Of a DNA stretch of 64,000 nucleotides, positions 37,950 to 62,218 are shown piece by piece. This DNA is from a plasmid. The translations under genes and the position numbers were made by a program. The notes beneath the pieces are model-generated. The model made no database searches and was not told where the DNA came from. It saw only the letters and a program-made list of their open reading frames with translations. Position 1 is the first letter of the stretch; the number at the start of each line of letters is the position of its first letter. The DNA is taken from the sequence record NZ_CP028351.1. One strand, given 5' to 3'.

Positions 37950-40900
37950 TCAGAAGTGATATGACAGGCCGATCATACCACTGTAATCCGTTTTAAATTC
38001 ACCACCCAAACTGCTCTCTACTTTCGCATTTAGTGAAAGGCCAGGCGCGACAATACCTTCCAGCCCTACACTGCCACGATAACGGTTATCTGACCAGGCG
38101 CTGTATTGCCGGTTTGACTGACGATCGGAAAGTGTGGTTGTGGAGCCATTATTACCAGGTGAATACTGATAGGCCAGACTGGCATTGACGTTAATATTCG
38201 GCATTAATGCGCCCAGACCGCGTTTCTGCACCATGAACCCGCTGCTGGTGAAGTAAGGTGTGGATGAACTTAACGAAACTGACGCATCTTCCCCTTTCAG
38301 GGTATAGCCGGACATGACACCAGCGGTCACACCAACAAACGGTGAGATAAACAGAGTATCGTTAGCCAGCGCAAACTCATAGCCAGTGCGCAGGCTGCCT
38401 GCCAGCATATGGCTGTCCTTTTTCATGCCATTAATATTTAAAGCAGGATCCAGCGTTATCTCCTGATTCAGATACATATAACGACTGGCCGCATCAAAGA
38501 ACCATCCGGCATCAGCCTGCCAGGAATAAAATGCACCGACAGTAGCCAGTCGATGCTTTTCATGACCCTCCCCTTTTACCTCACCCTGCGTATAACTGGC
38601 GCTGATACCGGCTGTTTGCTTGTCGCTGCGGGTATCCCAGCCCACATTCAGTGTTTGCTGGTTGACGTCGAGTCCAAGAAAATGCCCTTTTTTCTGCTCT
38701 ATTGTTGCCCATGATCCGCTGCTTTCTGGCGCGGCGCGCAGACTGTCAGTGCGGTTATGCAACTGACTGACCGCTTCACTGAAAATGTACTGCCGCGAGG
38801 CGATTAAGGCACGCGTGCGCTGGATCAATGGCAGGTTGTCGTAAACAGAGAACCAGTCATCCGGATTGAACGCCGGCTTTTTGGCTTCCTCTTCTGCTTT
38901 CGCTGCTTCCTCTTTCGCTTTTTTTTCAGCTTCGGCTTTTGCCTCAGCCTCTGCTTTGGAATTAGCTTCTTCCTCTGCTTTCGCTTTCTCTACAGCAGCT
39001 TGCTCAGCAGTAGCATTATCCGCTGACGAAGCATCTGTAGCAGGCGCTGGCTCTGGCGTTACTTCTGGCTCAGGGGTAACTTCCGGTGCTGGCGACAATT
39101 CCGGCTCAGGCGTGACTTCCGGTGCTGGTGTCAGTTCTGGCGCTGGCGTCGGTTCCGGCGCAGGCGTCACTTCCGGTGCTGGCGTCGGTTCCGGCTCAGG
39201 CGTGACTTCCGGCTCAGCCGACTTATTACTTTCCAGCACCCACAAAACACGGTCCTTATTGTCTTTCACCTGATAATTGGGGGTGTAAACGCTAAATCCG
39301 CTGTAGCTGTCTGCAAAAGAGAAATAGCTGTGCGACGTGCCAGCAGGTGCATCAACCATTACCAGATCCTGGGCCAGCGCAACTTCGTCTTCACTTCCGA
39401 TTAGCAGACTTACGTCCAGCAGGTTGTCGCCACCACTCACCGAATTTTTTACAATCAGTTTGTCGCTTTCCAGTGTGGAGGGTTTAACGCCTAACATCAG
39501 ATTTAACCCGGTCGCATCCAGCGTATCGACATTCAGTGTTTTGGCGCTCCAGCGGCCTGAAGGCACCATTGAAAGTGTCGAACCACGTCTCGCCAGAAGT
39601 GAACTGATATTACTGTTGCCGGTCATCGTCCAGTTCGCATTGGCATCCAGCGTCATAAGGCTGCTGCCTGTTGATGTTACGGCCCCCTGATAGTTAACCT
39701 TACCAAGATAAAGTGAGGCATTGTTAGCCAACTGAACATCGCCTTCCACTTCGCTGGCGGGCAGCAGTGCCAGTGCATCCGCGCTTCGCACTGGCTGACT
39801 GCAGGAAACATCATCAGAATAGATGGCAGAATAGCAACGCCAGCTTTTCTCGCCTGCAAGCTCGCTATCGTTGTAGCCAAAAGAGAGTTTTGACGAATCA
39901 GCAGCAACAATGTTGGCTTTCACGCCAGCATATTCTCCCACCTGGAAATTCGCACCAGTACCTACATTGATCTGATCGGCTTTAAACAGTGAAGTGTTCC
40001 AGTCGTCATCAACGATAACGCCTCCCGCATGTGGAACCGGCTGACCAGAGAGCACCACCGTGCCATTCTCAACATTGAGATTGCCATTCAGGTTCATGCC
40101 CCCCGTAAGTGCAGTAATGGCCGTAGCGTTGTGCGGCAGGATATTCACGTTCATCACGCCGTTAAGCGCCTTCTCCAGGGTTTCTCCCAGAAAGCCTCGG
40201 AATACCTGAATATTAAGCTGTGTGAGGCGATGGTTGATCGCTTCATCCGCATCGGTTCCAAGATACGTCCAGGTCGATGTCGAGGTTTTATCGGTTGGGA
40301 AATACCAGTAGGATGAGGTATTTAATTGAAAATACTCGGTATCTTTGGTGTAGGGGTTTTTATACACATAGATATTACCTGGTGTTCCTTTTGGGTTACT
40401 GCCCGTAAATGTATAAAAGGGAACGTCTGCGGCGTTATAGCCCGTAATGTTCAGCGTTGCTGCGGCAGCACTGTGGTTTACCAGCGTAGCATCGCTATCT
40501 GTATGGTTAATCCTTTTAAAACTCAGCGCGTTTCCATTCAAATCTAAACGGCCCCCACGATAGCCAAAGTAGATCTGATCAGTCGCAACCTGACTTTCAT
40601 CATTCAGTACCACGGTTGGCCGACCACTCACTAAAGTGACTGACGAAAACGCCTGTTTATTGCCTGAGGCATCAGCTTGTTGATCGAGGATAACGGTACC
40701 CTCTCCCACATTCAGTGAACCCGAGTTTGTGCCAATGGCATTGATATGCAGTGTACCTGCGCCGATTTTATGCAGCGCATCGCTTGCCACGCCATTGACC
40801 TGCCACAGAACCTCTTTGTCCGCGTCAACCTCAATGCCGCCGCCAGCCCAGGTCGCATTGACGCCGTCGGCAGACGAGACAGTGTAGTTATTGGAAAACT

Positions 40901-49812: not shown

Positions 49813-50343
49813 ATGAAAAAGGTATCCATGGTTGCTATGGGTCTGCTGCTGGCAGCGGCACAGGTTAGTGCAGCAGAAGCTTCAGATGGCACAATTAACT
49901 TCACCGGCACCATTGCATCTCAGACCTGTACCGTAAGCGTTAACGGCGGAAGCAGTACTGCCACCGTTACCCTGCCGAAAGTAGCAGCCGGTGTATTAAA
50001 TGCGGCAGGTGCCGTTGCGGGCAACACTCGCTTTACTCTGGCGCTGAGCGACTGCTCCGCAACAACTGGCGATGTCTACGCTTACTTTGAGCAGGGCGCT
50101 GGTGTGAACGCCAATGGTCGCCTGACTAACACGGGTACTGCTACAGGTGTTGATCTGCAACTTCTGGACAGCGCTAACAACGCCATCAATGCAGGCAGCA
50201 CTGAACAGTCTACCGCTCCTGCAACTGTCGCTCTGACTGCAGGAGCTGGCACCCTGTCTTACTCAGCTCAGTACTATGCAACTGCTGCTGCAGAAGCAGG
50301 TACCGTTGCGTCAACAGTAAACTATTCAATCAATTACCTGTAA
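49813..50343 (+). CDS. fimbrial major subunit (type 1/FimA-like pilin)
   Basis: Signal peptide, a Cys pair (C..C) and a C-terminal beta-strand ...YSINYL. ATG 49813 has an AGGAAAG RBS. Confidence 0.85.
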   Translation: MKKVSMVAMGLLLAAAQVSAAEASDGTINFTGTIASQTCTVSVNGGSSTATVTLPKVAAGVLNAAGAVAGNTRFTLALSDCSATTGDVYAYFEQGAGVNANGRLTNTGTATGVDLQLLDSANNAINAGSTEQSTAPATVALTAGAGTLSYSAQYYATAAAEAGTVASTVNYSINYL

Positions 50344-50404
50344 TTGATTATGGTGAGGGCAATGCCCTCACCACTCTTCTCCTTTCATCACTTCAGTTAA
50401 TATC

Positions 50405-51142
50405 ATGAAAAAAAAAAGTTTTAAATTTTTGATCTCCTGTTTGCTCACTTGCGCAATGACTTCGTCTGCCTTTGCCAGTGTGACCATCATTGGTACCCGG
50501 GTAATCTACCCCGCTTCCGAGAAAGAGGTTACTGTTCGTCTAGATAATCGCGGCGATCATCCCGCGCTTGTTCAGGCATGGGTTGATGACGGAAATCCTG
50601 ACGAAGCAGTAGATAAAATAAATGTTCCTTTCGTTTTATTACCTCCGGTTTTCCGTATGGAGGCGAATAAAGGACAAACGTTACGGATTGTTTTTACGGG
50701 CGCCAGTCTGCCCACCGGCAAAGAGTCTATCTTCTGGCTTAATGTCCTTGATATACCTCCTCGTGATAAAAGTCTGGCTAATCAGAACCAGCTGCAAATG
50801 GCAATCCGGAGTCGCATCAAGATTTTTTATCGTCCAGTTCAGTTTGATACAGCCCAGGCCAATAAAGCTGCGTCAGGACTGGTATGGCGTCACGGTCAAA
50901 AACCTAATTTTCTTTCCGCAACTAACAACTCACCTTTCTACGTTAACGTCTCACAGATTAATGCAGAAGATAGCGCAGGTCATAAATTAGTCAGTGAAAA
51001 AGGGGAAATGCTGGCACCAGGCGAAACAAAAGAGTTCCCGTTGAAAGGCATGAGCACAAGTCAAATAAAAACAACATTTAAGTATCAGTATCTGGACGAC
51101 TTTGGTGCAGCACGTAAGGTTGAAAGCAAAATAAACGAGTAG
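50405..51142 (+). CDS. fimbrial periplasmic chaperone (PapD/FimC family)
   Basis: Signal peptide. Conserved blocks GTRVIYP, LVQAWVDDGNP and FWLNVLDIPP of the PapD-like family. Confidence 0.9.
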   Translation: MKKKSFKFLISCLLTCAMTSSAFASVTIIGTRVIYPASEKEVTVRLDNRGDHPALVQAWVDDGNPDEAVDKINVPFVLLPPVFRMEANKGQTLRIVFTGASLPTGKESIFWLNVLDIPPRDKSLANQNQLQMAIRSRIKIFYRPVQFDTAQANKAASGLVWRHGQKPNFLSATNNSPFYVNVSQINAEDSAGHKLVSEKGEMLAPGETKEFPLKGMSTSQIKTTFKYQYLDDFGAARKVESKINE

Positions 51143-51168
51143 CTTTTGATAATTATCCAGGGGAAATT

Positions 51169-53754
51169 ATGATGGCAAGGACGGTATTTTTTAATAAACC
51201 AACTGGCAAAACTTTTTATCGCTCTTTTTTGGCGCTGTTCCTGACCGCAGCAACTCAGTCAGCGATTGCTGAAACTGCTTATGATTTCGATGAATCATTT
51301 GTAAAAAATTTAGCTGGTGTAAAAGTAGACGTTTCCCGCTACGCAACTGGTAACCCCATTGATCCCGGCGTCTACACGCTGGATATCTTTTTGAATGGCC
51401 GTCAGATTAGTCGGGAGAATGTTCAGGTTGTGCGTGAGGGAGCAGGTACTAAAGCCTGTCTTTCTTATGATCTGGTAAAAAGCCTTTCCATTAAAGATAC
51501 AGTCTTCAGCTCTGAGCAAGCTGAAGAGTTACGTTCAGGTAAGCAATGTATAGCACTGGAAGATGTGGTTAAGGAGAGTCATGCCGCAATCAACTCCGCT
51601 GATATGCAGATGGACATCTCAATTCCACAGATTTATTTGCTGCGCTCAGCACGTGGCTATGTCGCTCCAGAATTCTGGGATAAGGGCGAAACGGCGTTAA
51701 CACTTAACTATGACACCAACTATTATCGCTCTGTTAACGACGGACGTGAATATGACTCTTTTTATGGCAGGGCGCTGGCAGGTTTTAACCTTGGCGGCTG
51801 GATGTTTCGTCATGATGGCTCATTAAGCTGGCGACGCCAGCAAGGTAAGGAGTCTCATCATTATAATGCCATCAACACCTATGTTCAGCGTGATATCCCG
51901 CAACTGAAATCACGCTTACTGTTAGGTGAAGGTAATACGAGTGGCGAGCTCTTTGATACCCTCGCTTTCCGGGGTGCGCAGATATCGACTGTCGATCAAA
52001 TGTGGCCTGATTCACAACGTGGTTACGCACCAGAAATTCGTGGCGTTGCACGTACTAATGCTCAGGTAACTGTATCGCAAAACGGTAGTAAAATTTATGA
52101 GACAACCGTTTCGCCAGGCCCCTTTAATATCTCCGACCTCTACCCTACCGGCTACGGTGGCGACTTAGATGTCACTGTAAAAGAAGCTGACGGCAGCGAA
52201 ACGCGTTTTTCAGTTCCTTATGCAGCCATGACGAGACTGAAGCGCCCGGGTATGACGTTCTACTCTGTGACGGGAGGTGTGTCGCGTAAAGACAACATGG
52301 CTTATACGCCTTCTGTTTATCAGGGCACCATTCAGCATGGCTTTACCAATAGTCTGACCGGTTATACCGGTGTGCTGGGATCAGACAACTATATCTCTGC
52401 GCTGTTAGGCGGTGCATTTGGGTTACCGATCGGCGCTATCTCTCTTGATATCACTGGTGCTCAGACAAAATATGGCGATGAGAAAAAGCAGGGTGTGAGC
52501 TATCGTGCGACCTACAGTAAAAAAGTTTCTCAGACTGACACTAACTTTACCCTCGCAGCGTATAGATTTTCGTCATCAGGCTATTACAGCTATGACAATG
52601 CACTGCAAATTAATAACTATTACAAAAAGAATAAAACCAACGGGACAAATTATCTCTCCCGGCCTAAACAACGCTTTTCACTGACTGCCAGCCAAAATTT
52701 TGGGGAGTCATATGGGAATATCTATCTTACTGGTTTCGTTCAAAATTACTGGAACAGCACCGGTACAAACACTCAATTTCAGTTAGGCTATAATAATAGA
52801 ATTGGTCGCGTGTCCTATACATTGTCAGCAAACCGATTATTATATTCAACCGGCGGGCATGACACGCAACTCTCACTCGACTTCTCTATACCACTTGGTA
52901 GTGAAAGTAAAAATTATGTAACTGGAAGCGCCACACATAATAAAGAGGGTGTAACTGCTCAAACTGCACTTAATGGTGTACTAGGTGAGAATGATCAATT
53001 TAGCTATAACGTAGGTGCTGCACGCGATATCGATAATAAAAAATCAGGTTCGATCGGTGGTCAATATCGCTCACCTTACAGCATGCTGACAGCAGCATAT
53101 ACTAAGGGTGAAAACTATTATTCAGCCTCGGCAGGCGCCAGTGGAACAGTTATTGCGTTACCTGATAGCATTAACTTTAGTGCTTATCAGTCGACAACGT
53201 ATGCTGTAGTAAGCGCCGATGATGCAGCAGGTGCCCGCGTGTACGGTTATCCCAACATAGTGCTGGACGGAAGCGGCAGAGCAATTGTACCTAATCTTAA
53301 TCCGTACAGAATAAATGAACTGGCGATTGATCCAAAAGGTATTCCACTTGATGTTGAGCTGGAATCAACTCAACAGCGAGTTATTCCTGTTGAAGGTGCT
53401 GTAGTCAGACTGGACTATAAAACCAGTAAGGGAAAACCACTTTTAATAAGGGCAAATCAGCCAAATGGCAATGCCTTACCATTTGGTGCATCAGTCAATG
53501 ATGAAAATGGCAATCTGGTGACTACTGTTTCACAGGGTGGTCAGATTTACGTCAGGCTGAATAAAGATGTCAGCCGTCTGCATGTTTCATGGGGGAAAAC
53601 GGCAAATGACAAGTGCCTGGTTAACCTTGAATCTGGTGCCGTTCAGTCCAGTGAAAATCAGACACTGGCGAGATTAACGACAACCTGCAGTAGCGATCAA
53701 GTGCAGCCGGTACGGTACGCATCTAATACCGACAATAAAGATACACAGGGTTAA
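51169..53754 (+). CDS. fimbrial outer-membrane usher (PapC/FimD family)
   Basis: 861 aa. Usher N-terminal, barrel, plug and C-terminal domains are recognisable (e.g. YDFDESFVKNL...GVYTLDIFLNG). Confidence 0.9.
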   Translation: MMARTVFFNKPTGKTFYRSFLALFLTAATQSAIAETAYDFDESFVKNLAGVKVDVSRYATGNPIDPGVYTLDIFLNGRQISRENVQVVREGAGTKACLSYDLVKSLSIKDTVFSSEQAEELRSGKQCIALEDVVKESHAAINSADMQMDISIPQIYLLRSARGYVAPEFWDKGETALTLNYDTNYYRSVNDGREYDSFYGRALAGFNLGGWMFRHDGSLSWRRQQGKESHHYNAINTYVQRDIPQLKSRLLLGEGNTSGELFDTLAFRGAQISTVDQMWPDSQRGYAPEIRGVARTNAQVTVSQNGSKIYETTVSPGPFNISDLYPTGYGGDLDVTVKEADGSETRFSVPYAAMTRLKRPGMTFYSVTGGVSRKDNMAYTPSVYQGTIQHGFTNSLTGYTGVLGSDNYISALLGGAFGLPIGAISLDITGAQTKYGDEKKQGVSYRATYSKKVSQTDTNFTLAAYRFSSSGYYSYDNALQINNYYKKNKTNGTNYLSRPKQRFSLTASQNFGESYGNIYLTGFVQNYWNSTGTNTQFQLGYNNRIGRVSYTLSANRLLYSTGGHDTQLSLDFSIPLGSESKNYVTGSATHNKEGVTAQTALNGVLGENDQFSYNVGAARDIDNKKSGSIGGQYRSPYSMLTAAYTKGENYYSASAGASGTVIALPDSINFSAYQSTTYAVVSADDAAGARVYGYPNIVLDGSGRAIVPNLNPYRINELAIDPKGIPLDVELESTQQRVIPVEGAVVRLDYKTSKGKPLLIRANQPNGNALPFGASVNDENGNLVTTVSQGGQIYVRLNKDVSRLHVSWGKTANDKCLVNLESGAVQSSENQTLARLTTTCSSDQVQPVRYASNTDNKDTQG

Positions 53755-53793
53755 TGGGGTAACATCATGTTTTTAATTTCAGGAAAGAAAGTA

Positions 53794-54828
53794 ATGCGCC
53801 TCATTGGCTCAGTTTCATTAATATTAAGTCTGATGCTGATAGCTACTTTCAATGTTAATGCAGCGGGTACCTCAACGGATGTGACACTGACGTGTAAAAT
53901 AACATCAAGTACATCGTTAGTTGATGTGAGCTCATTGGGCATTAATATTTCAGCAGCTGTGCCAGTGGGTACGATCGTTTATAGCGGCACGGCAACTGCT
54001 AACTTCAAATGTGCTCTGGATAATTTGCAGCAGTACTTAGATGGATTAAGCGGTGAGGTCTATTTTAAGCGCAAGGCGATTGACGCGAGTGCCCTGGGTT
54101 ATGGATTGACGTTATATACTGGCTATGGCGGAGAGATGAGTACCGATGCCGCAAGTATTGCAACCGGTATCATGATTAGTACTTATGCCTTAACCAGCGG
54201 TGGAACCGTGGGCACCTATACAGATGTCTCTCTCAACGTACCCTATCAGATTGTAAAGACCTCCAACTCTATGTCAGCATCGACTTCACTAAAGAGCTAT
54301 GTAAACGCTTTTGACGTTGGTTCGTTAGTATCAGGTAAAGATGTATCATTCAACTTCACTAATATTAAAACAGGTATCACAGTTAAAGATCAGACATGCT
54401 CAGTCGCCGGTGATACCAATCTGCCTGTGCCATTAGGTAGTTACACCACGAACCCTACTAGCGGTTTAGGATCAGGAATCGGCCAGACTAGCGCTACAAC
54501 CGCGTTTAATATTCAGCTTAACTGTGAGGCACTTCTTTCGGGTTCGTTTGATGTGATGATGCAGTTGGATGGTGATGCGTCTAGCGGATTATCGGATTTG
54601 GGTGTGGTGGCACTTAATTCGGCCTCAACTGCGAGTGGTGTCGGTGTACAAATCCTCAATGAAAATCAGCAGCCGATAGCACTCGCTACACCGTTTAACA
54701 TTGCGGCTTACCCGCTCTCATCTGCCTTAATCACAGTGCCACTCTATGCACGTTATTATCAGACGGCGACGAAAATAAATCCTGGCTCGGCCAATGCAGT
54801 AGCAACGTATACGCTTAGTTACCAGTAA
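53794..54828 (+). CDS. fimbrial tip adhesin (two-domain, FimH-like architecture)
   Basis: Signal peptide. ~340 aa, a length consistent with lectin plus pilin domains. ATG 53794 (AGGAAAG RBS) is preferred over the track start 53767. Confidence 0.7.
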   Translation: MRLIGSVSLILSLMLIATFNVNAAGTSTDVTLTCKITSSTSLVDVSSLGINISAAVPVGTIVYSGTATANFKCALDNLQQYLDGLSGEVYFKRKAIDASALGYGLTLYTGYGGEMSTDAASIATGIMISTYALTSGGTVGTYTDVSLNVPYQIVKTSNSMSASTSLKSYVNAFDVGSLVSGKDVSFNFTNIKTGITVKDQTCSVAGDTNLPVPLGSYTTNPTSGLGSGIGQTSATTAFNIQLNCEALLSGSFDVMMQLDGDASSGLSDLGVVALNSASTASGVGVQILNENQQPIALATPFNIAAYPLSSALITVPLYARYYQTATKINPGSANAVATYTLSYQ

Positions 54829-54883: not shown

Positions 54884-55546
54884 GTGAATAAACCTAAGCA
54901 AAAAAATAAGCTCAGGCTTGGTGTATCAGATGAAAGTCCATTTATTTTTTACTCCATCCAAAACATACTGGTAAAGGAGTTTTCAGAACTTGATATTATT
55001 TCTTATCCGGTTGAAGCTGATCATTTGCTGTCTGTTATCAGAGAGGATATGCCAGATATATTAATAACGGACTTCTGCTTTAATTTTGAGCGTAACGATG
55101 TTAATGGCGTGAAAAAAATAGAACAGATACATAAGAAAAACCCGGACTTAAAAACTATTATTTTTACTGCACAAAACAGTCAGGCTATTTTGAAAAGTAT
55201 ATTGCAAATCCCGGTTAATGCCATCGTACACAAGCGAGACGACATTCGTGATTTGGTCAAAGCATTCAATTGGGTTTGCTCATCCAATACAGGAATATAC
55301 TACTCAGAACAGATGAAGAATTTAATGCTCTCTGCACCCGCAGATCCGGCACAAACACTTTTGTCGCCGTCAGAAGTAGAGGTCATTCGATTATTCGCCA
55401 TTGGATATAGCCTGATGGAGATAGCAAAAGCACGTAAACGTAGCATAAGCACCGTTGCAACACAGAAATACAACGCCATGCGTAAGCTACAGCTGCAATC
55501 AAACACAGATTTGATTAAGTATGTTTTTGCACAGGAACTCATTTAA
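54884..55546 (+). CDS. FimZ-like NarL/FixJ-family response regulator (LuxR HTH)
   Basis: Receiver-like N-domain (DILITD acceptor region) plus a C-terminal LuxR HTH. GTG start. Confidence 0.7.
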   Translation: MNKPKQKNKLRLGVSDESPFIFYSIQNILVKEFSELDIISYPVEADHLLSVIREDMPDILITDFCFNFERNDVNGVKKIEQIHKKNPDLKTIIFTAQNSQAILKSILQIPVNAIVHKRDDIRDLVKAFNWVCSSNTGIYYSEQMKNLMLSAPADPAQTLLSPSEVEVIRLFAIGYSLMEIAKARKRSISTVATQKYNAMRKLQLQSNTDLIKYVFAQELI

Positions 55547-55582: not shown

Positions 55583-56905
55583 ATGAAATTTCATAATCAG
55601 AACATTGCATTACTGGCACTAACCTGTACTCCATTTTTCACATCTGCAACCAACCTGCAGCAAGCTGCTCAGGCTGCATTGAGCTATGACTCAGCATTAC
55701 AATCCAGTCAGATGACCAGTTCAGCAGATAAACAAAAATACTGGCAAGGCATGGCCGGAATGTTGCCAACATTAACTCTGGAAGGAAACTGGGATCGTCA
55801 GGAACAGCCTGATAAGAAATATCAGAGTGGGGTAACCAACCACAGTTACGATCTCAGCGTCAGACAACCGCTATTTGATATGAGTAAATATGCCGGATGG
55901 CGTAAAGGTGTTGCTATTGCCAACACTGCTGAAGCACAGGCAAAACAGGCTGAAGAGAAATTACTTAGCGCTATTAGCAATGCTTATTTTACAGTGCTTT
56001 ATCAGCAGGAAGTTTTACAGGCCGCCAAAGCCGCCAGCCATAACTTTAGGCAACAAGAGCAAAAACTTCAGACCGGGTTAATCAATGGGCAGAATACCCG
56101 CACTGAACTGGACGAGGCAAAAGCTAACTACGCTCTGGCACAGGCTAAGGAAATAGAAGCTGGCAATCAGCTATTGCTGGCAGGCGAGGCATTTCGCCGT
56201 TTATCAGGTATCAGCCCGGACACTGTAGAACCAGTGAATTTTCAGTGCCTGAAAGCATCGCCTTATTCTTCTCTGACCGATGCAATTAATGCCAGCCAGC
56301 AGCGTAATACTGATATTAAAATTGCGCTTTTTCAGAATGATCAGGCAGACGCAGATGTTCTTGCGGCTGACGGCGCACACATGCCAGTGGTCTCGCTCTA
56401 TGCGAGATACGGCAAGAACTGGAGTCGTAATGACGACGACGACAATATCCTGTATGACGCAATCTTCGGGACGAACTCAAAGAGTAATAACCTCCAATAT
56501 GGCGTAAACGTTTCTGTTCCATTGTTTGCCGGCGGCAGTCAGGTTTCACAATCCTTTGAAGCAGCTTATCGTCGTCAGGCAGCAAAGTATTCCACGATGG
56601 AAGCACAACGCAAGGCGGCAACCGATACCCGTTCTGCCTGGCTTAGCCTGACCAATGGCAAAGCCTTAATCAGTGCTCAAAAGAATGCCGTCGACTCAGC
56701 ACGTGAAAAAGTGGTGTCGGTCCAGTATGGCCGTGAAATGGGCTTTCGCACCGTTAATGATGAACTGGATGCTCAGCAAAAATATTACACCGCACTCAAA
56801 GATCAGGCTGAAGCACGCCTAAGTTATCTCAATGCCCTAATCAATCTGGCGCAAAGCACTGGATCGTTATCGCTCGACATGCTGAATTTTTTTCAGTGCC
56901 GTTAA
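55583..56905 (+). CDS. TolC-family outer-membrane efflux protein
   Basis: Signal peptide. Two OEP repeats with coiled-coil segments. 440 aa. Confidence 0.85.
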   Translation: MKFHNQNIALLALTCTPFFTSATNLQQAAQAALSYDSALQSSQMTSSADKQKYWQGMAGMLPTLTLEGNWDRQEQPDKKYQSGVTNHSYDLSVRQPLFDMSKYAGWRKGVAIANTAEAQAKQAEEKLLSAISNAYFTVLYQQEVLQAAKAASHNFRQQEQKLQTGLINGQNTRTELDEAKANYALAQAKEIEAGNQLLLAGEAFRRLSGISPDTVEPVNFQCLKASPYSSLTDAINASQQRNTDIKIALFQNDQADADVLAADGAHMPVVSLYARYGKNWSRNDDDDNILYDAIFGTNSKSNNLQYGVNVSVPLFAGGSQVSQSFEAAYRRQAAKYSTMEAQRKAATDTRSAWLSLTNGKALISAQKNAVDSAREKVVSVQYGREMGFRTVNDELDAQQKYYTALKDQAEARLSYLNALINLAQSTGSLSLDMLNFFQCR

Positions 56906-56930: not shown

Positions 56931-58190
56931 ATGGAACAATCACTCTTTCGTCAGGAGGCGCTTGATGCCGCTAATCGGGGTAACCTGGGCATCGTAGCAC
57001 TTTATTGTCCGCCCTATCGCTGGCTTGTTATTTCTGTGGTGATTTTTATTACTGCCGTTACAACCCTGTTTTTCATTTTCGGCAGCTATACGAAATATGA
57101 ATCTTCTACCGGAGAACTGCTGCCTGAGAATGGCATGTTAGTCGTTCCTCCTCCTGTAAGCGCAACCGTGGTGGATATTCCGGTTAAAGAGGGACAACTG
57201 GTCAAAAAAGATGATGTTCTTATGGTGTTGTCATCCGAAGTCTCAACACAGATGGGACAGACACGTCAGGTTATCGCCGAAAATCTGGTGGCTCAGCGGG
57301 AACGACTTCAGCAGGATCTTCAGACGCTTGCCAAATTGCATGACGTCGAAATGAAAGGGTTATCCGACACCATCGCCAGTCTGAAACTCCAGCAGGAACA
57401 GCTGAGACTTCAGCTGTCACACCGCCGCAAACAGGTGGCGTTAGCGAAATTGCAACTGGATAAACTCAACGCTATGCATCTGGAGGGGTACGCCTCAAAC
57501 CGTCAGCTGGAAGAACAGGAATCCAATCTGCTCGACAGCCAGGCACGTTACCAGGAGTACCAGCGTCAGCTGCTGGACACGTCGCAAAAAATTGTTCAGG
57601 CGGAGCAGCAACTGCATGAAAAGCCGCTGGATGATGAGAAAAAACGCAACGACATCGAACGGCAACTGGCAGATAACCGTCAGTCAATGGCAGAGAATGA
57701 AGCGCGCCGATCCATTGAGCTTCGTGCGCCGAAGAGTGGTTATGTCGGCATGATCATGGTCAAAAATGGTCAGATGCTGAACGCCGGTCAGTCGGCCATC
57801 GCGATTCTGCCTAACAATACCAACCTTGTTGCCCGCATCATGGTCAATACGCAATCCATTGGCTTTATCCAGCCAGGTCAGCGTGTCGTGCTGCGCTATA
57901 AAGCCTTTCCTTATCAGAAGTTTGGCCAACAATATGGCAAGGTGATCGAGGTCTCTCGAACCGCCCTCTCGCCTCAGGAAGTCACCACCTTAACCGGTAA
58001 AAACAATGTTCAGGAACAGCAGTACCGGGTTCTGGTCTCTCTGGATAAACAAACTATTTCTGCTTATTCGCAGAATGAAAAACTGAAGCCTGGTATGGCG
58101 CTGGATGCCGACTTTATTGTTGACAAACGTCGTCTCTATGAATGGGTACTGGAGCCGATTTTCGCGCTGGGACACAAAATTTCTCTCTGA
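56931..58190 (+). CDS. HlyD-family membrane fusion protein, CvaA-like (microcin/bacteriocin exporter)
   Basis: N-terminal FRQEALDAxNRG, as in CvaA (FRQDALENRK). Single TM, a long coiled-coil and a C-terminal beta domain. Confidence 0.85.
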   Translation: MEQSLFRQEALDAANRGNLGIVALYCPPYRWLVISVVIFITAVTTLFFIFGSYTKYESSTGELLPENGMLVVPPPVSATVVDIPVKEGQLVKKDDVLMVLSSEVSTQMGQTRQVIAENLVAQRERLQQDLQTLAKLHDVEMKGLSDTIASLKLQQEQLRLQLSHRRKQVALAKLQLDKLNAMHLEGYASNRQLEEQESNLLDSQARYQEYQRQLLDTSQKIVQAEQQLHEKPLDDEKKRNDIERQLADNRQSMAENEARRSIELRAPKSGYVGMIMVKNGQMLNAGQSAIAILPNNTNLVARIMVNTQSIGFIQPGQRVVLRYKAFPYQKFGQQYGKVIEVSRTALSPQEVTTLTGKNNVQEQQYRVLVSLDKQTISAYSQNEKLKPGMALDADFIVDKRRLYEWVLEPIFALGHKISL

Positions 58191-58207: not shown

Positions 58208-60391
58208 GTGTTGTTATTAGAGAAACTCAATTTCAAATGGTTTAACCGCTTACCGATGATTCGTCAGTCACAGGCAGCGGAGTGTGGTCTGGCTTGTCTT
58301 GGCATGATAGCTAATTATCACGGCCATCAGATCGACATGATCACGTTACGTCGTCAGTTCGCTACATCGCTCAAAGGCGCCACACTGGCTGATGTCATCG
58401 CTATGGCACAACAGCTCAATATGACTTCCCGCGCACTGCGAGTGGAAATGGAAGAGCTGTCTAAACTGCGCATGCCCTGCATTCTTCACTGGGAACTGAA
58501 CCACTTTGTGGTATTGAAGAAAGTACGCGGCAATAAAATCACCATTCACGATCCCGCGCGTGGGATCCGCGAACTGACCTTTAAAGAAGCATCGACCGCC
58601 TTTACCGGTGTCGCGCTGGAGCTGGTTCCCTCTTCCACCTTTGAAGTAAAAGAAGAGAAAGAAAGCATCTCAATGATGAAGCTGGTGGGCAGCGTGACCG
58701 GGGTAAAGTCTGCCTTTGCTCAGGTGCTCATCCTCTCAATCGCACTGGAGCTATTCGGCGTCCTCGGCCCCTTCTTTATGCAATGGGTGATGGATATGGT
58801 GCTGGTTTCTGCTGACTATTCTTTACTGTCGCTGCTCGGTGTGGGCTTTATCATGATCGCGCTGTTTCAGACTATCGTTACAGCGTTGCGCTCATGGGTA
58901 ATGAGCTGGTTCTCAAGCCAGCTTAGTGTGCAGTGGACCATAAACGTCTGTCACCATATGTTAAAGCTGCCGCTGGAATGGTTCGAATCACGCCACGTCG
59001 GAGACATTCTTTCTCGTTACGGTTCGCTTAATACGATTCAGAGTACACTGACTTCCCGTTTCATCAGCACCGTACTGGACGGTGTCATGTCAATCGTTAC
59101 GGTAGTGATGCTTTTCATCTATAACGCGCAACTGGCGTGGCTGGTCATTGGACTTTTTCTCGCCTATGCACTGCTGCGTTTTATGGCCTACGATCCGGTT
59201 CGCCGCGCCAATGAAGAACAAATCATCAGCTCGGCCCGTACCCAATCGTCTCTGCTTGAAACGCTGCGTGGGATCCAGGCGGTTAAAACCAATAATAAAC
59301 AGGTACCCCGACTCTCGGCTTACATGAACTTTCTGGTGGATACCACCAATAAAGGCATCGTGATTCAGAAGCTCAACATCCTGTTCGGTTCGGCTCAGGG
59401 ACTGCTAACCTCAGTGGGCCGTGTGGTTCTGGTCTGGCTTGCTGCCCTGCAAGTTTTGGATGGCAACTTCTCTGCCGGTATGCTGACCGCCTTTATCAGC
59501 TTTTCAGATCAATTCATGAGTCGCGGTTCAGGTTTGATCAATGCCATCATCGATTTCCGTATGCTGAGAATGCATGGTGAACGCCTTGCCGATATTGTTC
59601 TGTCTGAAACAGAAGTCAGTTCTGAGGGCAATCCAGGTCTGGTTAGTAAGGAAACCGACAAGGAGACAGACGTACCGCAGGATATCAAGCTTATCAATCT
59701 CCGTTTTCGTTATGCGCCGACTGAACCCTGGGTTGTCGATGGTGCAAATCTGGAGATTAAAGCGGGTGAAAGCCTTGCCATCGTGGGGCCATCCGGCCAG
59801 GGTAAAACTACGATGGCCAAACTTATTCTTGGCCTGCTACACCCGGAAGAAGGCACCATCACCGTGGGTGGCATGGACATCACTCAGACCGGACTTGAAC
59901 ATCACCGTAATCGCATCGGCTGCGTAATGCAGGATGACATTCTCTTTTCAGGCTCAATCAGCGAGAACATCAGCTTCTTTGATAACGAACCCGATCACGC
60001 AAAAATTACCCGCGTGGCCCGTCTGGCTCAGATTCATGGCGATATCATGAAAATGCCGATGAATTATCAAAGCCTTGTAGGTGATATGGGCTCGTTTTTA
60101 TCAGGTGGCCAGCTACAACGTATCCTGCTGGCGCGCGCACTCTATCGCGAACCTAAAATCCTGGTACTGGATGAGGCCACCAGTCATCTGGATATCTATA
60201 ACGAAGCCCAGATCAACAACGCAATTAAGCAGATGATGATCACCAGAATCATCATTGCACACCGTCCGGAAACTATCCGCAGTGCCGATAAAATCGTCCT
60301 GTTAAATAACGGTAAGCTCAGCGAAGTCACGGCAGAGCAGTTATTTGGCCAGACAACAACCCATAATAAAACGGAGATTACCCATGGATAA
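58208..60391 (+). CDS. peptidase-C39 ABC transporter, CvaB-like (double-glycine leader cleaving exporter)
   Basis: C39 domain with catalytic Cys (QAAECGLACLGMI) and His (HFVVL). Six-TM domain, then Walker A GPSGQGKTT, LSGGQLQR and Walker B ILVLDEATSHLD. GTG 58208 is preferred as the start (it aligns with the CvaB N-terminus). The track ATG 58142 would overlap cvaA by 49 nt. Confidence 0.85.
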   Translation: MLLLEKLNFKWFNRLPMIRQSQAAECGLACLGMIANYHGHQIDMITLRRQFATSLKGATLADVIAMAQQLNMTSRALRVEMEELSKLRMPCILHWELNHFVVLKKVRGNKITIHDPARGIRELTFKEASTAFTGVALELVPSSTFEVKEEKESISMMKLVGSVTGVKSAFAQVLILSIALELFGVLGPFFMQWVMDMVLVSADYSLLSLLGVGFIMIALFQTIVTALRSWVMSWFSSQLSVQWTINVCHHMLKLPLEWFESRHVGDILSRYGSLNTIQSTLTSRFISTVLDGVMSIVTVVMLFIYNAQLAWLVIGLFLAYALLRFMAYDPVRRANEEQIISSARTQSSLLETLRGIQAVKTNNKQVPRLSAYMNFLVDTTNKGIVIQKLNILFGSAQGLLTSVGRVVLVWLAALQVLDGNFSAGMLTAFISFSDQFMSRGSGLINAIIDFRMLRMHGERLADIVLSETEVSSEGNPGLVSKETDKETDVPQDIKLINLRFRYAPTEPWVVDGANLEIKAGESLAIVGPSGQGKTTMAKLILGLLHPEEGTITVGGMDITQTGLEHHRNRIGCVMQDDILFSGSISENISFFDNEPDHAKITRVARLAQIHGDIMKMPMNYQSLVGDMGSFLSGGQLQRILLARALYREPKILVLDEATSHLDIYNEAQINNAIKQMMITRIIIAHRPETIRSADKIVLLNNGKLSEVTAEQLFGQTTTHNKTEITHG

Positions 60392-60815
60392 GACTATTTG
60401 CCGCTTCACTGAAGGCACAATTACCTTGCCGGAAGGCTACTGCGAACGAACACTGAATACGCTGGCTGATACCCGATCTGTTCTGCCACCAATCACTATT
60501 TCCCGTGATAAGTTAGGCGACCATAACAACCCGGAAGAGTATATCCTTAGCCAGCTCGCTATCCTGCAAAAGCAGATGAAAGACTGGCAACAGGAAGCCC
60601 ATCAGCCAGTAGTTTTGGGGGACAACCTGACTACGGGAATCATGATCAGTTATGATTTCCTGCGACCAGATAATCTTCGTCTTTATCAGAAACAAGCTTT
60701 ATTCACGCTTAATATGGAAGACATATTGATTTTCTCTCTGTCGAAGGCGAGTCCTATTACCGCAGCAGATCTTCAGTTGTTCTCAGATACGCTAAAGAGT
60801 TTCCGTACCTGGTAA
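60384..60815 (+). CDS. DUF1795 (DcrB/EagR-like) family protein
   Basis: N-terminal pattern FTEGTITLPEGYxERTLNTLAD...ITISRDKLGD...EEYILSQLAILQKQM fits the DUF1795/DcrB-fold family. ATG 60384 overlaps the cvaB-like stop by 8 nt. Confidence 0.5.
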   Translation: MDKTICRFTEGTITLPEGYCERTLNTLADTRSVLPPITISRDKLGDHNNPEEYILSQLAILQKQMKDWQQEAHQPVVLGDNLTTGIMISYDFLRPDNLRLYQKQALFTLNMEDILIFSLSKASPITAADLQLFSDTLKSFRTW

Positions 60816-60890
60816 TCAGTCGTGTACAGATAAAAAAACCGGAAGGGAGTTAACTCTTCCGGTTTGCGTTTCACTAATCAGTTACTGCGT

Positions 60891-61388
60891 TTAGTAACGC
60901 TGGCAGGTGAAAAGATAGGAGAGCGGCCCGCCGACCAGATAAGTTTTTTTATCAATTTGCGTGATATCCAGTTGCAGATAACCAGGATCGAGTGTGATCT
61001 CTGCCAGGAGAAGATTAAACACAGCATCCGGTGTAGTGTCGTTAGTTGAAGTAATGGTCGTTCTTAATTTGTAGCGATAAGTGTCGCTATCGATTTTATT
61101 ACCGGCACTCAGTGCAATACGTCGATTAAGGATGGTCACCTTATCACCAAAAGTAACCTGCCCATTCATTAACAGATAGCCGAGCTTAGAATCAATAAAA
61201 CGTAAATCCTGAGAAACAACAAACTCAATCTTTTGATCATCATGACGGCTAAGATCGTAGCGGCTGAATGCTGAGCAGCGGAAAGGCAGGTCGTCAGGCC
61301 GGGGCTTCACGTAATTAATTCCCGCGAAGACCAGCAGCAGCATCACAGCCAGGGTTATCGTCAGCGTGAGGGTAGCGTTCCGTTTCAA
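60891..61388 (-). CDS. FidL/YqeJ-like small membrane-anchored protein
   Basis: 165 aa with an N-terminal TM anchor. It sits immediately downstream of, and overlaps, the ToxR-like regulator gene, as fidL/yqeJ do with marT/yqeI. Confidence 0.4.
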   Translation of the reverse strand: MKRNATLTLTITLAVMLLLVFAGINYVKPRPDDLPFRCSAFSRYDLSRHDDQKIEFVVSQDLRFIDSKLGYLLMNGQVTFGDKVTILNRRIALSAGNKIDSDTYRYKLRTTITSTNDTTPDAVFNLLLAEITLDPGYLQLDITQIDKKTYLVGGPLSYLFTCQRY

Positions 61389-62218
61389 AGCGGTCTCCAG
61401 TCAAGATAATAGAAGTTATCGCAGGAAACGATATGGCCACTGCTGTTTAGGTTACAGGCGGAAAGAATGGTCCTGCCATAATCTTTAGTTGTGAATGCCG
61501 TGTTTTTATCGAAATAGATGCGTCGTCCTGATAGACAGGATTGATTATTCTCTTTAAGGATTTCCAGAATCTGCTTATCCAGTGACTTTTGCTCAAAAAC
61601 ATCCAGCCCCTGAATAATGACCGCCTCGCAACCACCTTCCAGTTTGATGGTACTCATAGCAGAATTCTTTGCAGCGGGATCCCCTGAAGTGATGTACCTG
61701 AAAGCACCACCCAGCAACATCAGCATGATAAGGACGACTATGACCTGTCTTAAGTTGAAAAAAGATTTTTTAACAGGCTTGTTTGCGATAACTGGATCGG
61801 ATGATAGTGAGTAGCTATCCTGGCTGGAATCAACATTTTCCTCAGGCATTTCATCAGCCTGAAGCTTCCCCACAACCACAGCCGGGGAGTGTTTATGTTC
61901 AATTTTAATGTCAGTATTTAGTCGGATGCCGATTTTCGGAATGGTGATAATCAGATTTTCACAACCATAAGCCGCAAGCGCTCTGCGCAGAATACTCAGA
62001 TACTGGTTCAGATTACTGTTTGATCCACGCAGCCCATATTTATCCCAGACTTCGGTCAGCAGGGTTTCGCGCGCCAGTATTTCTCCCTGGGAATTCAGTA
62101 ACTGCTCAAACAGCCGGCCCGATGAAATACTCAGACTCAGCGTGTCCTGAGTAGGAATATGGCTCAGCGTACAATCATCTGAATTATAGGTAATCTGGTC
62201 ATCGATAATGTAAATCAT
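61385..62218 (-). CDS. ToxR/CadC-like membrane-anchored winged-helix regulator (MarT/YqeI-like)
   Basis: N-terminal OmpR/PhoB-type DNA-binding domain (ARETLLTEVWDKYGLRGSNSNLNQYLSILRRAL). A single TM helix (VIVVLIMLMLLGGAF) and a C-terminal periplasmic domain follow. Confidence 0.75.
   Translation of the reverse strand: MIYIIDDQITYNSDDCTLSHIPTQDTLSLSISSGRLFEQLLNSQGEILARETLLTEVWDKYGLRGSNSNLNQYLSILRRALAAYGCENLIITIPKIGIRLNTDIKIEHKHSPAVVVGKLQADEMPEENVDSSQDSYSLSSDPVIANKPVKKSFFNLRQVIVVLIMLMLLGGAFRYITSGDPAAKNSAMSTIKLEGGCEAVIIQGLDVFEQKSLDKQILEILKENNQSCLSGRRIYFDKNTAFTTKDYGRTILSACNLNSSGHIVSCDNFYYLDWRPL

Follow-up and report, generated by a model that had tools for sequence, protein, structure and literature searches.

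A DUF1795 protein coupled to a microcin-type exporter on Pantoea plasmids is a candidate Eag-like chaperone of type I secretion

The 64,000-nucleotide (nt) stretch of plasmid DNA analysed here (sequence record NZ_CP028351.1; hereafter, the window) carries an operon for a type I secretion system (T1SS) of the class II microcin kind, whose last gene (60384..60815, + strand) encodes a 143-amino acid (aa) protein of the DUF1795/DcrB family. This protein, classified as Eag-like and cytoplasmic on the basis of PF08786, its match to SciW and an AlphaFold2 model, is the subject of the present work. The gene immediately upstream (58208..60391, + strand) encodes a CvaB-like C39-peptidase ATP-binding cassette (ABC) exporter (peptidase-containing ABC transporter, PCAT), recognised by its Peptidase_C39, ABC_membrane and ABC_tran domains, by the NCBIfam bacteriocin and type I secretion ABC families, and by its RefSeq annotation. 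The start of the PCAT gene is ambiguous: RefSeq and the homologues point to GTG 58208, and an in-frame ATG at 58142 would overlap the preceding gene by 49 nt. That preceding gene (56931..58190, + strand) codes for a CvaA-like membrane fusion protein of the HlyD family (HlyD_3, type_I_hlyD), and it follows a gene for a dedicated TolC-family outer-membrane channel (55583..56905, + strand; OEP, E=4e-44; TIGR01844, 230 bits, over the cut-off).

The ATG codon of the DUF1795 gene occupies positions 60384-60386, and the PCAT reading frame ends in ACC CAT GGA TAA, with its stop codon at 60389-60391, resulting in an 8-nt overlap (ATGGATAA). A Shine-Dalgarno sequence, GGAG, is located at 60373-60376, spaced 7 nt from the ATG. 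No terminator was found between the PCAT and DUF1795 genes, the only terminator-like site lying 3' of DUF1795. This site, called at 60845-60860, corresponds to a GC-rich hairpin (60839..60862, assigned to neither strand) with a 7-bp stem (60839-60845 / 60856-60862) and A-run and T-run flanks, and it is likely a bidirectional terminator between DUF1795 and the convergent fidL-like gene. The preliminary description of this DNA had reported both the 8-nt ATG/stop overlap with a cvaB-like gene and the coupling to a C39 ABC exporter; the coordinates agree with the former, and the gene overlap together with the C39 and ABC domains of the upstream product with the latter. The same overlap is present in Rahnella variigena, Erwinia billingiae and related contigs, indicating that the adjacency of the two genes is no chance juxtaposition; in more distant loci a gap of 9-55 nt takes its place. 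Translational coupling suggests that the DUF1795 protein is co-produced stoichiometrically with the PCAT.

The identical protein of Pantoea vagans C9-1 plasmid pPag1 already bears the RefSeq name 'DcrB-related protein' (WP_013356589). Thus, membership in the family is not new, and the unexplored part is the meaning of such a protein in an exporter context. Membership, as previously proposed, was borne out by a hidden Markov model search with Pfam DcrB (PF08786), which scored 71.8 bits (cut-off 27.2; E=7.3e-20) in an alignment spanning the whole profile, positions 1-127 of 127; a search of the NCBIfam families gave zero matches. Only three solved structures were matched by sequence (E~2e-7), all of them entries for SciW, an Eag chaperone of Salmonella whose crystal structure includes the transmembrane (TM) domain of Rhs1. 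The AlphaFold2 monomer model (predicted local distance difference test, 89.8; predicted template modelling score, 0.84), when submitted to Foldseek, again retrieved SciW at the top (6XRR/6XRB, TM-score 0.72-0.75), with EagT6 reaching 0.55; the lower-ranked matches include PsbP proteins and EagT6, and Mog1 proteins were also returned. The structure prediction therefore places the protein closest to SciW and points to an Eag fold. Its N-terminus (MDKTICRFTEG...) contains no signal peptide, lipobox or hydrophobic stretch, with a maximal hydropathy of 0.38 over the first 35 residues, and hydropathy revealed no TM segment in the protein. Since an N-terminal hydrophobic signal and a lipobox are lacking, sequence inspection and hydropathy indicate that the protein is not a periplasmic lipoprotein of the DcrB type. 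The earlier suggestion of an EagR-like chaperone can accordingly be narrowed to the Eag-like cytoplasmic type, as opposed to the DcrB-lipoprotein type, with SciW as the best match.

Eag dimers hold the TM helices of effectors, as described by Ahmad et al. 2020 (PMC7773334) and in a 2026 biophysical study (PMC12881460). In these complexes, Q58 and Q102/Q106 hydrogen-bond the helix backbone, and L66 acts as a 'knob' that packs into GxxxG/A 'holes' (PMC7773334, PMC12881460). The contact positions are kept in the window protein, whose Q57, M65, Q102/Q104 and S40 align with SciW Q58, L66, Q104/Q106 and S41, a large hydrophobic knob being retained with M65 in place of L66. The contact glutamines are invariant in the exporter-linked homologues aligned, save at the Q106 position in the divergent subtype B described below.

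The window region is 98% identical to P. vagans C9-1 pPag1 and of the pPag1 plasmid type; it is present in 46 Pantoea plasmids, and no match to the locus was found in E. coli genomes. Close DUF1795 homologues (57-100% identity) occur in Pantoea, Erwinia and Rahnella only. TolC-HlyD-PCAT is immediately followed on its 3' side by the DUF1795 gene in Pantoea spp., E. billingiae, R. variigena, Rahnella victoriana and Serratia plymuthica, as well as in Hafnia psychrotolerans, an Enterobacter metagenome-assembled genome (MAG) and a pectinolytic enterobacterium. The order in R. variigena, E. billingiae and related contigs is PapD-usher-adhesin-LuxR-TolC-HlyD-PCAT-DUF1795, followed by convergent genes for a FidL-like protein and a winged helix-turn-helix (wHTH) regulator. 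A full-library profile search extended the family to a graded series of more distant relatives. One of them (P0108, 46% identity) is again found 3' of fimbriae-TolC-HlyD-PCAT; another (P0109, 39% identity), from the pectinolytic enterobacterium, belongs to a minimal island (L010) consisting of TolC-HlyD-PCAT-DUF1795 and a divergent 76-aa double-glycine-leader peptide with zero charged residues and seven GxxxG motifs. No fimbriae, LuxR gene, FidL/wHTH pair or recognisable immunity gene were found in this minimal island. The DUF1795 gene persists beside the PCAT gene while the rest of the island has been rearranged.

A survey from the exporter side, in which one genome per species was scanned with a PCAT alignment and the 80 loci returned were searched with the DUF1795 profile, located the gene immediately 3' of the PCAT in four Pantoea species, H. 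psychrotolerans and the Enterobacter MAG. Two Erwinia species whose PCATs are 62-63% identical lack it, and so does every one of the 72 PCAT loci (47-55% identity) from Xanthomonadales, Burkholderiales, Acinetobacter and other groups, 70 of which extend at least 600 nt past the PCAT. The Hafnia and Enterobacter proteins, here called subtype B, are ~20% identical to the window protein and score over the Pfam threshold (47.3 bits for the Hafnia homologue), and a further search detected subtype B in R. victoriana, S. plymuthica, Ewingella and other genera. The loci of R. victoriana and S. plymuthica have the order usher-adhesin-PapD-LuxR-TolC-HlyD-PCAT-DUF1795, then a same-strand gene for a microcin-type peptide (104-109 aa, double-glycine leader, Gly-zipper, 12 GxxxG motifs), and then the FidL-like and wHTH genes in convergent orientation. 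In a neighbour-joining tree, subtype A, P0108 and P0109 form one clade beside Eags of type VI secretion systems (T6SS), and subtype B constitutes a long separate branch. P0110, a near relative that is not linked to an exporter, is a classical Eag encoded between VgrG and a prePAAR-PAAR-Rhs gene. In Cronobacter dublinensis pA14-2 (L098, 7983-12610), an Eag gene lies directly 5' of an RHS gene, and its product is 41.6% identical to the window protein. This Eag is as close to the window protein as the exporter-linked P0108 and P0109, which sets the exporter-linked clade near genuine T6SS chaperones.

That the closest outgroups are genuine T6SS Eags is what would be observed if the DUF1795 gene were a hitch-hiker, i.e., an orphan Eag gene that came to lie behind the PCAT and either serves a prePAAR effector encoded elsewhere or has no role in the locus. 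Orphan eag genes are common, the mean of 2.5 Eag paralogues per genome exceeding the number of prePAAR effectors (PMC7773334), and both P0111 and the homologue on contig L008 are orphans. However, an orphan fits poorly with a position that is conserved in at least eight genera or lineages by two subtypes only ~20% identical. The VgrG, PAAR, prePAAR or Rhs effector neighbour usual for Eag genes is not seen here, where the PCAT gene lies upstream and the convergent fidL-like gene downstream, and the 64-kb window shows no gene for T6SS, PAAR or Rhs. Moreover, the 8-nt overlap is conserved, the gene evolves under purifying selection and it is kept in the minimal island. In Pantoea agglomerans CFBP8785 (L097, NZ_CP143411.1, 11330-12321), one deletion took fimA through the PCAT gene together with the first ~37 DUF1795 codons, so that DUF1795 was truncated by the same event that removed the exporter; a second plasmid, NZ_CP143417.1, gives the same truncated DUF1795 match. 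We therefore consider a hitch-hiking Eag gene highly improbable.

The ratio of nonsynonymous to synonymous substitution rates (dN/dS) of the DUF1795 gene is 0.07-0.20 at unsaturated distances, a purifying regime which indicates that the gene is maintained by selection; the corresponding values for the PCAT gene are 0.03-0.08. The DUF1795 protein diverges 2-5 times faster than the PCAT, its identity to the homologues of L009 and L010 being 46% and 39%, respectively, versus 72-73% for the PCAT. This fast divergence is the pattern expected of a partner of rapidly diversifying peptides, not of a conserved machine. It thus bears on the proposal that the protein is another sort of T1SS accessory with no TM-helix holdase activity, such as an adaptor through which cargo or leader docks to the C39 domain, a factor that assembles or stabilises PCAT/HlyD, or an export regulator. 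Stoichiometric co-production with the PCAT would suit such a factor, as would the location of the gene 3' of the PCAT, which is conserved above every other feature, including its location relative to the peptide genes. Nevertheless, a protein whose partner is a machine conserved at 72-99% would not be expected to evolve so much faster than the PCAT, the residues with which Eag proteins contact TM helices are retained, and none of the 72 other PCAT loci contains a DUF1795 gene. An accessory of this sort appears to us distinctly unlikely.

The putative substrates of the exporter are encoded 10.7-11.2 kb upstream, with a fimbrial operon and a LuxR-type regulator gene between them and the exporter. 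They were found by reading small open reading frames (ORFs), since a strict regular expression for double-glycine leaders run over the window gave nothing useful. The first ORF, pep1 (49160..49477, + strand), encodes a double-glycine-leader precursor with the leader MRELTSVEMQNVSGAG and an 89-aa Gly-zipper hydrophobic core that has a Gly content of 24%, contains 10 GxxxG motifs and is hydrophobic from residue 1 to residue 62. The second, pep2 (49487..49708, + strand), encodes another double-glycine-leader peptide, with the leader MRELKTNEIDGVSGG; its N-terminus is amphipathic, and a polar linker precedes a TM helix at the C-terminus (hydrophobic segment at mature residues 34-58). Both leaders are of the canonical class II microcin type (criterion: a 15-19-residue double-glycine leader), MREL...VSG(A)G. 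In searches of Pfam and NCBIfam, the peptides gave only sub-threshold matches to MccV or Bacteriocin_IIc, and pep2 was matched by no family.

A double-glycine-leader Gly-zipper peptide (23-26% Gly, 7-12 GxxxG motifs) is encoded nearby in every complete DUF1795-bearing locus, a count that leaves out R. variigena, E. billingiae and the P0108 genome, where the sequence upstream of the fimbrial genes lies outside the loci compared. By contrast, pep2 is kept in several Pantoea species and one Erwinia species and is missing from Pantoea latae and all subtype-B loci; because P. latae does without it, the constant partner is the pep1-type Gly-zipper peptide and not pep2. Therefore, the assertion that the exporter has very hydrophobic putative substrates stands insofar as two double-glycine-leader peptides exist, but the peptide emphasised at the time, that with the C-terminal TM helix, is not the conserved one. 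For its part, pep2 may be a second microcin, an immunity factor or a helper. A possible precedent for pep2, an MccPDI immunity protein with a double-glycine leader, proved unsupported, as the paper describes two leaders in McpM itself.

The pep1 product is letter-for-letter the published candidate 'Pantoea MccP06' (supplements of PMC13174018). MccP06 was predicted, cloned and assayed in that 2026 paper, and its inhibition of E. coli was significant in one of two self-inhibition trials (PMC13174018). These trials relied on heterologous secretion by CvaAB, without the DUF1795 gene, and the activity was weak and non-reproducible (PMC13174018). Weak activity of MccP06 when the DUF1795 gene is left out fits a missing helper, although it is no proof of one.

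No small membrane immunity ORF was recognised beside pep1/pep2 in the window, nor in L010 or L095/L096, and pep2 or the DUF1795 protein might fill the immunity role. According to this alternative, the DUF1795 protein would neutralise the mature microcin, either re-entering the cell or at the cytoplasmic face, and would be dispensable for export. No classical small multi-TM immunity gene is visible beside the peptide genes in L010 or in the Serratia and R. victoriana loci, where, transport genes aside, the microcin gene has only DUF1795 next to it. Hydrophobic pore-type class II microcins, however, act from the periplasmic side, and the known immunity proteins are inner-membrane proteins; a soluble, cytoplasmic protein with no TM segment would be unlikely to protect against peptides that attack from outside. 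Non-classical immunity does exist, as in the proteolytic immunity to a Vibrio cholerae microcin cited in PMC13174018. Against an immunity function there is also the coupling of the gene to the exporter operon while the peptide genes are 11 kb off in the window, the retention of the peptides without DUF1795 in an Erwinia locus (L018, see below), and pep2, which could itself be the immunity factor in Pantoea. On balance, we regard an immunity protein as unlikely.

We propose instead that the DUF1795 protein acts as a cytoplasmic holdase of the Eag type that was taken over from type VI secretion by a class II-microcin-type T1SS operon, where it would clamp peptide precursors, a role towards which we lean, if only slightly. 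Made by translational coupling with the PCAT and presumably dimeric like SciW and EagT6 (Eag chaperones being domain-swapped dimers), the protein would clamp the precursors with double-glycine leaders by their hydrophobic glycine-zipper helices, the pep1/MccP06-type peptide being its main client and pep2 possibly another. Such binding would keep the precursors soluble, unaggregated and out of the inner membrane of the producer before export, with a predicted effect on secretion or self-toxicity; upon hand-over to the PCAT, the C39 domain would then take the leader, and the peptide would leave through HlyD and TolC. By analogy, GxxxG-rich clients would suit the knobs of Eag proteins, which pack against GxxxG/A 'holes' (PMC7773334). 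From the sequence comparisons, the idea of a chaperone seems strengthened well beyond the window. We advance more tentatively, as a serious possibility that falls somewhat short of probable, that this recruited TM-helix holdase of the Eag type is the first dedicated, operon-encoded cargo chaperone of type I/PCAT secretion.

Several observations weigh against a chaperone function. To our knowledge, MccV and MccE492, equally hydrophobic classical microcins, are exported without any such factor. The subtype-B proteins are changed at S41 (to N) and Q106 (to T), and SciW S37 is not conserved, being replaced by P or T in the exporter-linked homologues. Erwinia sp. AnSW2-5 (L018) possesses pep1- and pep2-like peptides, the T1SS and fimbriae, yet has no DUF1795 gene or remnant within 10 kb or elsewhere in its 22-kb locus, and tblastn detected no DUF1795 remnant in L018 or L019; hence, DUF1795 is not obligatory in this strain, unless a copy resides elsewhere in the genome. 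Erwinia sp. Eh17-17 carries the T1SS alone. Conversely, on contig L008 (8305-10435) the syntenic site is occupied by an intact DUF1795 gene (59% identical), with fimbriae, T1SS and double-glycine-leader peptides all missing, and the CFBP8785 deletion variant, which keeps pep1 and pep2, is a further counter-example. Finally, the clients of Eag proteins have so far been the N-terminal TM domains of large PAAR effectors, not free 60-90-aa peptides (PMC7773334). As regards L008, its DUF1795 gene is located between helix-turn-helix (HTH)/LuxR genes and FidL/wHTH, with DUF1090 and YfaZ genes inserted downstream. An orphan decaying after loss of the T1SS was ruled out for this contig, in which FidL, wHTH and LuxR are equally diverged (53-64% versus 59% for DUF1795) and dN/dS is similar.

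The remaining genes of the island surround the exporter operon. Just 5' of the T1SS genes lies a LuxR/GerE-type response regulator gene (54884..55546, + strand; Response_reg and GerE), whose position is kept in most related loci; it forms an intact 220-aa ORF in the window and appears disrupted into two coding sequences in P. vagans C9-1 (L004, 8984-9645). It is preceded by a chaperone-usher fimbrial operon (49780..54828, + strand), identified from its ORFs and RefSeq annotation, which comprises a major subunit, a PapD-like chaperone, an usher and an adhesin and whose linkage is kept in other genera. In Pantoea, Erwinia, Rahnella, Hafnia and Serratia (L001, L006, L009, L018, L021, L095, L096), fimbriae and LuxR are persistently tied to the TolC-HlyD-PCAT cassette, with a variable fimbrial order (downstream in L018) and with both missing from the minimal island L010. 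It might be speculated that the fimbrial linkage reflects close-range delivery of very hydrophobic peptides, in analogy to the proximity-dependent MccPDI, and the island as a whole (fimbriae, LuxR, T1SS, Eag and Gly-zipper peptides) may be specialised for close-range delivery of extremely hydrophobic microcins. On the other side, a gene for a FidL-like membrane protein (60891..61388, - strand; PF15941, E=2e-11) converges on the operon and overlaps a gene for a ToxR/CadC/MarT-like winged-helix regulator (61385..62218, - strand; Trans_reg_C, E=9e-10), with which it forms an operon. Both are conserved neighbours, and the pair travels with the cassette in nearly all related loci, appearing as YqeJ_C and Trans_reg_C in subtype-B loci. 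Farther upstream, large autotransporters are encoded at 37950-41978 (- strand) and 43478-46384 (+ strand); one has a passenger domain of the Peptidase_S6 type, judged by the syntenic gene in L008, and near 45.3-45.5 kb the other carries a perfect (ATD)x8 repeat.

Full-text searches brought up no publication in which DUF1795, DcrB or Eag is connected with microcins, PCATs or type I secretion. The sole paper containing both 'DcrB' and 'microcin' deals with T6SS AHH effectors and is unrelated. The view that a DUF1795 accessory is not known from classical microcin systems therefore holds, no precedent having emerged from these searches, and the DUF1795 gene goes unmentioned in two microcin genome-mining papers (one of them PMC13174018). 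The locus joins a known kind of system, the class II microcin T1SS, and a known kind of protein, the Eag-type DUF1795 protein, in what appears to be an undescribed combination. Should the proposed role be true, a conserved Eag homologue in microcin exporter operons would tie the T6SS and type I fields together, and the 'membrane-mimicking' holdase solution for hydrophobic toxins would turn out to be reused across secretion systems. In the prevailing view, type I/PCAT exporters receive their cargo unfolded and directly from the ribosome, with no dedicated chaperones, and Eag chaperones are regarded as T6SS-specific. A holdase would also explain in concrete terms how producers tolerate very hydrophobic pre-microcins. 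On the practical side, it could offer a way to improve the heterologous secretion of hydrophobic microcin candidates such as MccP06, and the system is carried on plasmids of the fire-blight biocontrol species P. vagans and P. agglomerans.

Compared with known systems, the window protein shares its Pfam family with the namesake of PF08786, DcrB of E. coli and Salmonella. DcrB, however, has a lipoprotein signal peptide and an envelope role, whereas the window protein has no signal sequence and is closest to SciW among solved proteins. The exporter resembles the class II microcin T1SS (CvaA/CvaB/TolC for MccV; also MccH47, MccPDI and MccL) in its PCAT with an active-type C39 domain, HlyD-type membrane fusion protein, TolC and double-glycine leaders. 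Nevertheless, classical clusters consist of four or five genes (microcin, small TM immunity protein, membrane fusion protein and PCAT), employ the housekeeping TolC and contain no DUF1795 gene, while the locus in the window has a dedicated TolC paralogue, LuxR, a fimbrial operon, the FidL/ToxR-like pair and DUF1795, and no obvious classical immunity gene. That a T1SS substrate can be kept export-competent by a cytoplasmic chaperone has a precedent in the SecB-dependent secretion of HasA by the Has T1SS. SecB differs from the window protein in being a general housekeeping chaperone encoded outside the T1SS operon, with another fold, a substrate with a C-terminal signal and no PCAT cargo.

The closest parallel is provided by the T6SS Eag chaperones (SciW of Salmonella, EagT6 of Pseudomonas aeruginosa and EagR1 of Serratia), with which the window protein shares the Pfam family, fold, size (~145 aa), cytoplasmic location and contact positions. 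As with Eag genes, the DUF1795 gene sits immediately beside the secretion component to be served, and its likely clients are GxxxG-rich helices of an exported antibacterial toxin. The two arrangements differ in that the neighbour in the window is a PCAT/T1SS and the putative clients are free 60-90-aa double-glycine-leader peptides, and in that the window protein would release its cargo to an ABC exporter, whereas Eag chaperones release theirs to the VgrG spike.

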